Source of the DNA: a virus
Taxonomy: Duplodnaviria > Heunggongvirae > Uroviricota > Caudoviricetes
Length of the DNA: 31,884 bases
Virus record (IMG/VR): IMGVR_UViG_2541047931_000002
Coordinates: 1 to 31,884 of that record
Direction: 5' to 3' (one strand)
Positions 20,116-20,466 of the stretch are shown in pieces. Within the stretch, counting starts at the first letter, position 1. The number at the start of each line of letters is the position of its first letter. The notes under the pieces were generated by a model. It made no database searches. It was not told the origin of the DNA and worked only from the letters and a program-made list of their open reading frames with translations. The translations under genes were made by a program, and so were the position numbers.

Positions 20116-20466
20116 TTAAGGTTGTGATTCCGGTGGAGTCTTCAGAGAACCAGTAATTCTTCCCGGTAGCTTTCCTTTGTAGGTTATCAACACATCCTGC
20201 GCCTCTAAAATTACGGGGCGCTTTTCCGGCAACGGACCATCCCCTTCACATAACCCGGCAGCAACATCCAGGAAGACCTGTCTGATGCTCATTCTGGCTG
20301 CTGCCTCATAAAACTCCAGCGCGGCACCTTCAACACGGTCCAGCGAGATGTCCAGGTCAAAAATTTCACCGTCAAAGCGTTTTTTGTCCCGTAACGCTAA
20401 AGTTACCGTAACTTTATTCTCAAAATTGCGGATCCCTTTCACAATCAGTTCATAGTTTTGAGTCAT
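20116..20466 (-). CDS. Hypothetical protein (116 aa) inserted between holin and endolysin
   Basis: ATG 20466 lies 5 nt after the holin stop, with GGAGAG RBS inside the holin 3' end; no transmembrane segment; no family recognised. Confidence 0.55.
   Translation of the reverse strand: MTQNYELIVKGIRNFENKVTVTLALRDKKRFDGEIFDLDISLDRVEGAALEFYEAAARMSIRQVFLDVAAGLCEGDGPLPEKRPVILEAQDVLITYKGKLPGRITGSLKTPPESQP

Follow-up and report, generated by a model that had tools for sequence, protein, structure and literature searches.

ydfR Is an Optional Accessory Gene in the Variable Slot between the Pinholin and SAR-Endolysin Genes of a Lambdoid Prophage

Here we report that an open reading frame (ORF) located between the pinholin gene S and the SAR-endolysin gene R of a lambdoid prophage is ydfR, an optional accessory gene in a variable slot of the lysis cassette, and that ydfR has taken over the ribosome-binding site (RBS) that serves R in cassettes lacking it. 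The gene and its placement between S and R are already known and annotated. What is new here is comparative throughout, namely a clean presence/absence junction, the hand-over of the RBS, relatives in tail modules of other prophages, and a recurrent partner encoded on the opposite strand, and none of these points makes the ydfR gene analyzed here itself unusual. Our preferred reading, to which we give a probability of roughly 40%, is that ydfR is an optional gene expressed late, whose product acts on a cytoplasmic host factor, with RNase E and/or RNA as the candidate, rather than on lysis.

Results

Identification of the ORF between S and R as ydfR

The analyzed DNA, a single stretch of 31,884 nt referred to below as the window, represents a lambdoid prophage with its late genes on the minus strand, including Q, S, R, Rz, the terminase genes, an HK97-type head, and a lambda-type tail. 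The lysis cassette spans positions 19058-20686 in the order S, ydfR, R, and Rz with an embedded Rz1 (Table 1), the latter layout being that of rzoQ within rzpQ in Escherichia coli K-12. Translation of S reveals a dual start (M1/M4), and translation of R shows a weakly hydrophobic, SAR-like N-terminus together with the residues E35, D44, and T50. The longest ORF covering Rz begins at a TTG codon at position 19537. The original prediction, made without naming the strand, placed a 116-aa ORF between a pinholin and a SAR endolysin, and both the ORF list and the Pfam assignments of the flanking genes bear this out, with a complete ATG-to-TAA frame on the minus strand.

The product of this ORF matches the Pfam family DUF1327/YdfR (PF07041) over residues 1-112 with a score of 146.1 bits (cutoff 25) and an E-value of 3.7e-43, and the N-terminal core alone scores 125.8 bits. 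It also matches PHROGs 406 and 2091, neither of which has a known function, whereas searches against NCBIfam and PADLOC gave no match. An identical amino acid sequence is present at NCBI as "YdfR family protein [Escherichia coli]", and in a 1.8-kb locus of E. coli 1EC213 that is 99.3% identical to the window, RefSeq annotates the consecutive genes as holin, YdfR family protein, lysozyme, and lysis protein. The earlier statement that the product belongs to no recognizable family is thus superseded. A profile search of 1.84 billion cluster representatives returned 87 clusters at 50% identity, all of them DUF1327, and so provided no tie to a characterized superfamily. The homology and structure searches that had been proposed as a check therefore supplied a family, DUF1327, and no relative of known function by either sequence or structure. 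The window ORF is ydfR, and sequence comparisons indicate that the small YdfR/DUF1327 family is confined to prophages of Enterobacterales. All DUF1327 relatives that were looked up are encoded in late operons, and no second DUF1327 copy was found elsewhere in the 31,884-nt window.

Table 1. Coordinates of the lysis cassette and of elements of ydfR in the window
Feature	Position	Strand	Evidence
S, 71-aa phage-21-type class II holin (pinholin)	20471..20686	-	PF04971 "phage P21 holin S", E 9e-33; RefSeq "class II holin family protein"
Shine-Dalgarno sequence of ydfR, GGGGAGAG	20474..20481	-	Within the 3' end of the holin gene; junction alignment
ydfR	20116..20466	-	ATG 20464-20466, TAA 20116-20118; PF07041, PHROG 406/2091, exact NCBI match
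Conserved DUF1327 core, residues 1-74	20245..20466	-	AlphaFold2 model, alignment with distant members, identity to K-12
Variable linker and C-terminal module, residues 75-116 (...EKRPVILEAQDVLITYKGKLPGRITGSLKTPPESQP)	20116..20244	-	pI 9.4; pLDDT 46-55
63-nt spacer between ydfR and R	20053..20115	-	Last 22 nt are CGATAAATCCTGATAAATATCC, a conserved leader that is rich in A/U and lacks a Shine-Dalgarno sequence
R, 177-aa rrrQ-type lysozyme	19519..20052	-	PF00959, E 9e-24; PHROG 7 endolysin
Rz spanin (i-spanin)	19058..19522	-	PF03245, E 2.1e-48; start as in RefSeq for the 99.3%-identical locus L001
Rz1-like o-spanin lipoprotein ORF	19120..19302	-	Inside Rz; lipobox LVVVGC, proline-rich; ORF translation

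Hand-over of the ribosome-binding site from R to ydfR

On the coding strand, the junction between S and ydfR reads ...GGGGAGAG-TAA-TTCA-ATG, so that the holin stop codon (20471-20473) is separated from the ydfR start codon by a 4-nt spacer and the GGAGAG Shine-Dalgarno motif of ydfR lies within the final holin codons. The predicted duplex of this motif with the 3' end of the 16S rRNA has an energy of -8.5 kcal/mol, in agreement with the proposal that the ORF starts just past the holin stop and carries its RBS inside the holin 3' end. From the stop of S to the start of R the window measures 418 bp, comprising the 351-bp ydfR gene and the 4-nt and 63-nt spacers, and the G+C content of ydfR is 47% versus 52-54% for R and S. 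A scan of the minus strand over positions 20053-20686, limited to consensus patterns, detected no promoter-like or terminator-like site. Hence, ydfR is not an independent transcription unit, and the sequence gives no reason to expect that it is expressed in the lysogen. The proposed late co-translation with the lysis genes fits this placement, with a strong Shine-Dalgarno sequence and no internal promoter- or terminator-like site on the coding strand of S-ydfR-R.

Alignment of junctions revealed that the holin 3' end, the 4-nt spacer, and the ATG are common to cassettes with and without ydfR, this ATG being the start codon of R in the absence of ydfR and that of ydfR in its presence. The holin-embedded Shine-Dalgarno sequence pairs with the 16S rRNA equally well (-8.5 kcal/mol) for ydfR in the window and for R in the ydfR-less phage VT2phi_272. 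When ydfR is present, R is directly preceded by a 22-nt leader, CGATAAATCCTGATAAATATCC (20053-20074, minus strand), which has the same sequence in H-19B, E. coli N63, and PhiR12_1 as in the window, and for which the 16S duplex energy is ~0, with no Shine-Dalgarno pairing. Since R is placed on a weak leader in one cassette type and on a strong holin-embedded site in the other, the endolysin dosage may differ between them.

Immediately upstream of the holin gene (20836-21197, minus strand), an ORF of 67 aa with a DUF1737 domain (20994-21197) abuts a 53-aa ORF (20836-20997). The DUF1737 gene is flagged as incomplete by RefSeq in a related locus and thus has the appearance of a gene that was disrupted or fused. 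Between this region and S, a hairpin followed by a T-run is found at 20753-20725.

Optional occupancy of the slot between S and R

ydfR-like DNA is found at 8618 places in 4349 of the 5426 complete E. coli genomes (~80%), compared with 13417 places for the phage-21-type holin of this kind. In a search of phage genomes with the S-ydfR-R segment, 449 records matched, 99 of which cover at least 80% of the query, i.e., contain ydfR. A large block of 933W-type Stx2a phages matches the same query in two pieces that span only 747 bp. In one phage of this type, VT2phi_272, the holin gene ends at position 1716 and the lysozyme gene starts at 1721, leaving 4 nt between them. The S and R genes of the 933W type are ~87% identical to those of the window with no ydfR between them, so these lysis systems work without YdfR. 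The essD and rrrD genes of DLP12 also abut, whereas the order S-ydfR-R recurs in E. coli K-12 Qin (essQ-ydfR-rrrQ-rzpQ/rzoQ), H-19B, BP-4795, YYZ-2008, and dozens of Stx1a/Stx2c phages. The premise of the original prediction, that S and R are adjacent in cassettes of the phage-21/Stx type, is thus correct for the 933W-type Stx2a phages and DLP12 and incorrect for all those just listed; comparison with the 933W-type and DLP12 cassettes confirmed that some cassettes of the same type lack this additional ORF. The content of the S-R gap varies further, from empty to ydfR alone, as in the window, ydfR with an opposite-strand ORF (N63, PhiR12_1), or long ydfR fusions of 169-287 aa (PhiR12_1, phage 86, P0132).

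The ydfR gene of K-12 Qin (b1555, P76160) resembles that of the window in encoding a DUF1327 protein between a phage-21-type holin gene (essQ) and a 177-aa lysozyme gene (rrrQ), with the same holin-embedded Shine-Dalgarno sequence. However, it encodes 103 aa with an unrelated stretch of 29 C-terminal residues, and its stop codon overlaps the start of rrrQ, while the 116-aa gene of the window is followed by the 63-nt spacer. In H-19B, the same slot (a 400-bp S-R gap) holds an unannotated ORF, with equivalents in Stx1a/Stx2c phages, BP-4795, and YYZ-2008, whose product is 67.9% identical overall to that of the window; the C-terminal modules are nearly identical, but the middle of the core has strongly diverged (dN ~0.41).

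In several respects, ydfR is reminiscent of the lambdoid morons, such as bor and lom of lambda and gp15 of HK97 (PMC3594210), in that it is an optional insert of slightly lower G+C content (47% versus 51-54%) between conserved late genes and has relatives at several sites of the late operon. Morons are inserted between genes that are adjacent in related phages, as are S and R in VT2phi_272, where 4 nt separate them. On the other hand, morons carry a promoter and a terminator of their own, and neither was detected for ydfR by the consensus pattern scan.

Conserved core and exchangeable C-terminus of YdfR

The YdfR protein consists of a conserved core and a variable linker with a C-terminal module. 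The AlphaFold2 model of the core, built with distant members in the alignment, has a pLDDT of 86.9 and contains antiparallel strands at residues 5-14, 18-27, and 34-43 followed by a helix at residues 50-74. Among 25 family sequences with identities down to ~22%, Y53 is invariant and E54 is present in at least 90%, and the helix begins with this Y-E motif. With a pI of 4.7, the core is acidic, and it is conserved down to ~25% identity across genera and across differing genomic positions. According to the alignments, the core comprises ~72 residues, and the C-termini are interchangeable among DUF1327 members; the C-terminal module of the window protein is also fused to a different N-terminus in P0153. 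The window protein is itself mosaic, with a core of the Qin type joined to a C-terminal module of the H-19B type. Between the window and its 99.3%-identical counterpart there are five residue differences in YdfR, all of them in the linker and C-terminal module and H-19B-like at each position, suggesting that a short stretch within ydfR was exchanged by recombination.

The absence of a transmembrane segment, noted originally, is supported by a GRAVY value of -0.22 and by the soluble sheet-plus-helix fold of the model, and no signal peptide is predicted. Comparison of a sequence profile with PDB chains found nothing, and no convincing structural or sequence relative of known function was obtained for the core. 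Two family members carry tandem DUF1327 domains, which hints that the single domain dimerizes. For the core, dN/dS versus homologs is 0.25-0.32, compared with 0.06-0.15 for S and R; ydfR is therefore a real and constrained gene whose protein evolves several times faster than those of its neighbors. Truncated, fused, and internally deleted variants are frequent, although intact forms dominate (clusters with ~1000 members each).

Distant relatives in tail modules and opposite-strand partners

In Citrobacter freundii, Sodalis ligni, and metagenomes, distant members of the DUF1327 family measure 72-94 aa and are encoded not in lysis cassettes but in tail modules, where their genes follow the tape-measure gene, lie between the tail genes M and L, follow I, or immediately precede J, always on the late strand. 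One of the tandem-domain members is located just upstream of a holin gene of a different type. The tail-module sites imply that the DUF1327 family is not bound to any one lysis system and argue for mobile late-operon cargo over a lysis regulator.

In 11 fetched loci, the DUF1327 gene is followed by an ORF of 58-104 aa on the opposite strand, with stop-to-stop distances of -53 to +28 nt; the loci listed with such a partner (L004-L007, L010-L014, L016, L017, L018, L020, L022, and L023) include both S-R gaps and tail modules. The distant tail-module loci almost all show this pairing, as do several S-R gaps of E. coli. The partners fall into at least five PHROGs with no known function (2572, 1853, 2411, 10490, and 25324), among which 2411 contains the N63-type partner and 2572 the PhiR12-type partner, and have no match in Pfam or PADLOC. 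The partner in the tail module of locus L011 is homologous to that in the S-R gap of PhiR12_1 (E-value 2e-5), so the DUF1327 gene appears to travel together with its partner. In E. coli genomes, one partner type was counted at 1222 places and another at 335; set against the 8618 ydfR places, the ~1557 places of these two types suggest that most ydfR copies are solitary.

The window contains such a solitary copy. From S to about codon 113 of ydfR, the window matches the N63 locus at 98.2% identity, after which it lacks a 294-bp segment that holds the opposite-strand ORF in N63. No partner homolog or remnant was found anywhere in the window, and the distance between ydfR and R is just 63 nt. Two plus-strand ORFs that overlap R (19750-20127 and 19778-20119) were considered as partner homologs and found no support.

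A comparable arrangement has been described in the noncontiguous operon of phage phi80, where TaiEcA, a tail-assembly inhibitor expressed in the lysogen, is paired with a late-expressed antidote, AtiEcA (PMC11364771). Like many DUF1327 relatives, this pair places a small late-strand gene beside an opposite-strand gene that interrupts the Q-dependent late operon; unlike it, the window carries the late-strand gene alone, and there is no sequence similarity. The phi80 proteins AtiEcA and TaiEcA (gp51 and gp52) were rejected as homologs, as they matched neither the DUF1327 profile nor the partner ORFs.

Reported association of K-12 YdfR with RNase E

The first 72 residues of K-12 YdfR were recovered by two-hybrid selection with RNase G as bait and gave a stronger signal when paired with RNase E constructs that comprise the N-terminal, catalytic half, including a bacterial two-hybrid signal with RNase E 1-597 (PMC13232886, 2026). 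The full-length YdfR fusion gave a signal with the Rne1-597 construct only, while Strep-tagged YdfR co-purified Rne1-598 and brought down DNase-resistant nucleic acid (PMC13232886). These data, from overexpression, two-hybrid, and co-purification assays, are preliminary; as the lysate used for co-purification was not nuclease-treated, the two proteins could be held together by RNA. Overexpression of K-12 YdfR was non-toxic, caused no growth defect, and altered few transcripts (PMC13232886), the last of which argues against a strong global effect on RNase E. Residues 1-74 of the window protein are 80% identical to the RNase E-binding segment of the K-12 variant, which has another C-terminus. 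The acidity of the core is unusual for an RNA binder and counts against this lead. Judged by this sequence similarity, binding to RNase E and/or RNA would be the best, though weak, functional lead for YdfR of the window.

Other features of the window

The late region between Q and the tRNA genes on one side and the lysis genes on the other contains the Rfam small RNA STnc100 (21804-21993, minus strand; 132 bits versus a gathering score of 47), which ends in a G+C-rich hairpin with a T-run (21834-21813). It adjoins an iraM-like gene on the opposite strand (21443-21778), which is annotated as IraM in a 99%-identical locus. Downstream of the gene for the antiterminator Q (23086-23907) are two tRNA genes on the minus strand (22692-22766 and 22867-22942); they encode a tRNA-Arg (TCT) and a tRNA with a CAT anticodon, the second of which is called tRNA-Met by ARAGORN and tRNA-Ile by RefSeq in a related locus. 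Further Rfam hits correspond to the sok antitoxin RNA (25938-26112, minus strand), adjoining a hokD-type toxin gene as judged from a related annotated locus, and to DicF RNA (30825-30876, plus strand), near dicB/ydfD-type genes. Together, sok and DicF make the early region of the window Qin/Kim-like. A 171-aa ORF (18014-18529, plus strand) is located between the genes for the HNH endonuclease and the small terminase and is transcribed in the direction opposite to the late operon, a position and orientation typical of an accessory gene expressed in the lysogen; it is hypothetical in RefSeq and has no match in PADLOC.

Discussion

In this study, we identified the additional ORF in the lysis cassette of a lambdoid prophage as an ordinary optional passenger rather than a new component of the lysis machinery. 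The original prediction left a choice between a lysis regulator and late-expressed cargo. The cargo alternative has gained from the optional presence of the gene, the cytoplasmic character of its product, the harmlessness of its overexpression in K-12, and the relatives in tail modules, while a regulatory role is less favored. In the mechanism that we propose, ydfR, which has no signals of its own, would be expressed from the Q-dependent late transcript along with the lysis genes. Its product would be a soluble cytoplasmic protein composed of an acidic, probably dimerizing core of three strands and a helix and a short, basic, variable tail, and would most likely act on a host cytoplasmic factor and not on the lysis machinery. 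Among candidate targets, only the catalytic N-terminal half of RNase E and/or RNA has experimental support, obtained with the K-12 core, and the role of YdfR might then be to adjust RNA decay late in infection.

Phage proteins directed at this enzyme have precedents. The N-terminal half of RNase E is bound by the T4 protein Srd. It is also bound by RapZ (PMC13232886), and K-12 YdfR, which is reported to bind this half as well, can be compared in this respect with Srd, phiKZ Dip, and the host adaptor RapZ. YdfR differs from them in having no homology to characterized families and in being encoded in the late lysis operon of a temperate phage, not by an early gene of a virulent one.

Three rival explanations were weighed, ranked here as an orphan antidote, a modulator of lysis, and a gene with no current function. 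By analogy with phi80, where both the architecture and its logic are documented for TaiEcA/AtiEcA (PMC11364771), DUF1327 could be the late-strand self-protection or counter-defense partner of an opposite-strand protein expressed in the lysogen, and a solitary ydfR could neutralize the partners of co-resident or competing prophages. The recurrence of opposite-strand ORFs from the same PHROGs in 11 fetched loci, the homologous partners of L011 and PhiR12_1 at different positions of the late operon, and the 1222 and 335 E. coli places of two partner types speak for this explanation, which we nevertheless regard as unlikely, because the window lacks the partner together with the 294-bp segment that holds it in N63, most E. 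coli ydfR loci appear solitary (8618 versus ~1557 places), and the partners match nothing in PADLOC or Pfam and the phi80 proteins are not homologous. A fuller version of the same analogy would make DUF1327 the late half of a mobile two-gene cassette that includes a small helical opposite-strand protein, has overlapping 3' ends, and enters several insertion points of the late operon in enterobacterial lambdoid prophages; its halves might act as a Tai/Ati-like exclusion factor of the lysogen and a late antidote, and a solitary ydfR as an orphan antidote against the partners of rival prophages, possibly via RNase E/RNA. This version we consider rather improbable.

A role in lysis, either through an action of YdfR on the pinholin or SAR endolysin or through passive displacement of R from a strong RBS that lowers the R:S ratio, would account for the S-R position kept in Qin, H-19B, Stx1 phages, and the window prophage, and for the shift of R from the -8.5 kcal/mol site to a leader of ~0. 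The K-12 ydfR knockout is also present in the raw supplementary hit lists of a CPRG screen for envelope permeability (PMC3879167), although this hit could be explained if the resistance cassette had a polar effect on rrrQ, which lies downstream. Owing to its dual start, the holin gene already supplies an antiholin, and control of pinholins and SAR endolysins takes place in the membrane and periplasm, whereas YdfR has neither a transmembrane segment nor a signal peptide. Holin antagonists such as dual-start antiholins, T4 RI, and P1 LydB are marked by a membrane or periplasmic location and by consistent co-occurrence with the cognate holin or endolysin type; YdfR is predicted to be soluble, is absent from 933W-type cassettes, and has distant homologs in tail modules. 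Moreover, its overexpression produced no growth defect, and literature searches turned up no specific role for an ORF located between S and R. A modulator of lysis is thus a doubtful proposition. The least probable explanation is that ydfR is a hitch-hiking remnant between two essential late genes, which has no current function other than to supply spacing or translation context for R. It would agree with the narrow taxonomic range (87 clusters among 1.84 billion proteins at 50% identity), the frequent truncated, fused, or deleted variants under a constraint relaxed relative to S and R, and the small effect of overexpression. It is contradicted by the dN/dS values of 0.25-0.32, well under 1 over saturated synonymous distances, by the dominance of intact forms, and by the preservation of the core with Y53 and E54 across genera and positions.

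The window ORF needs no annotation beyond "YdfR family protein". Its family is of wider interest, as ydfR is among the most common E. coli prophage genes without an explained function, is often present in several copies, and is expressed together with the lysis genes of Stx1-type phages. Should the opposite-strand pairing prove to be a defense/antidote cassette, the conflict systems between prophages would gain a new family. If the reported binding of YdfR to RNase E or RNA is real and relevant late in infection, host RNA decay would be manipulated by temperate lambdoid phages as well as by T4, T7, and phiKZ.
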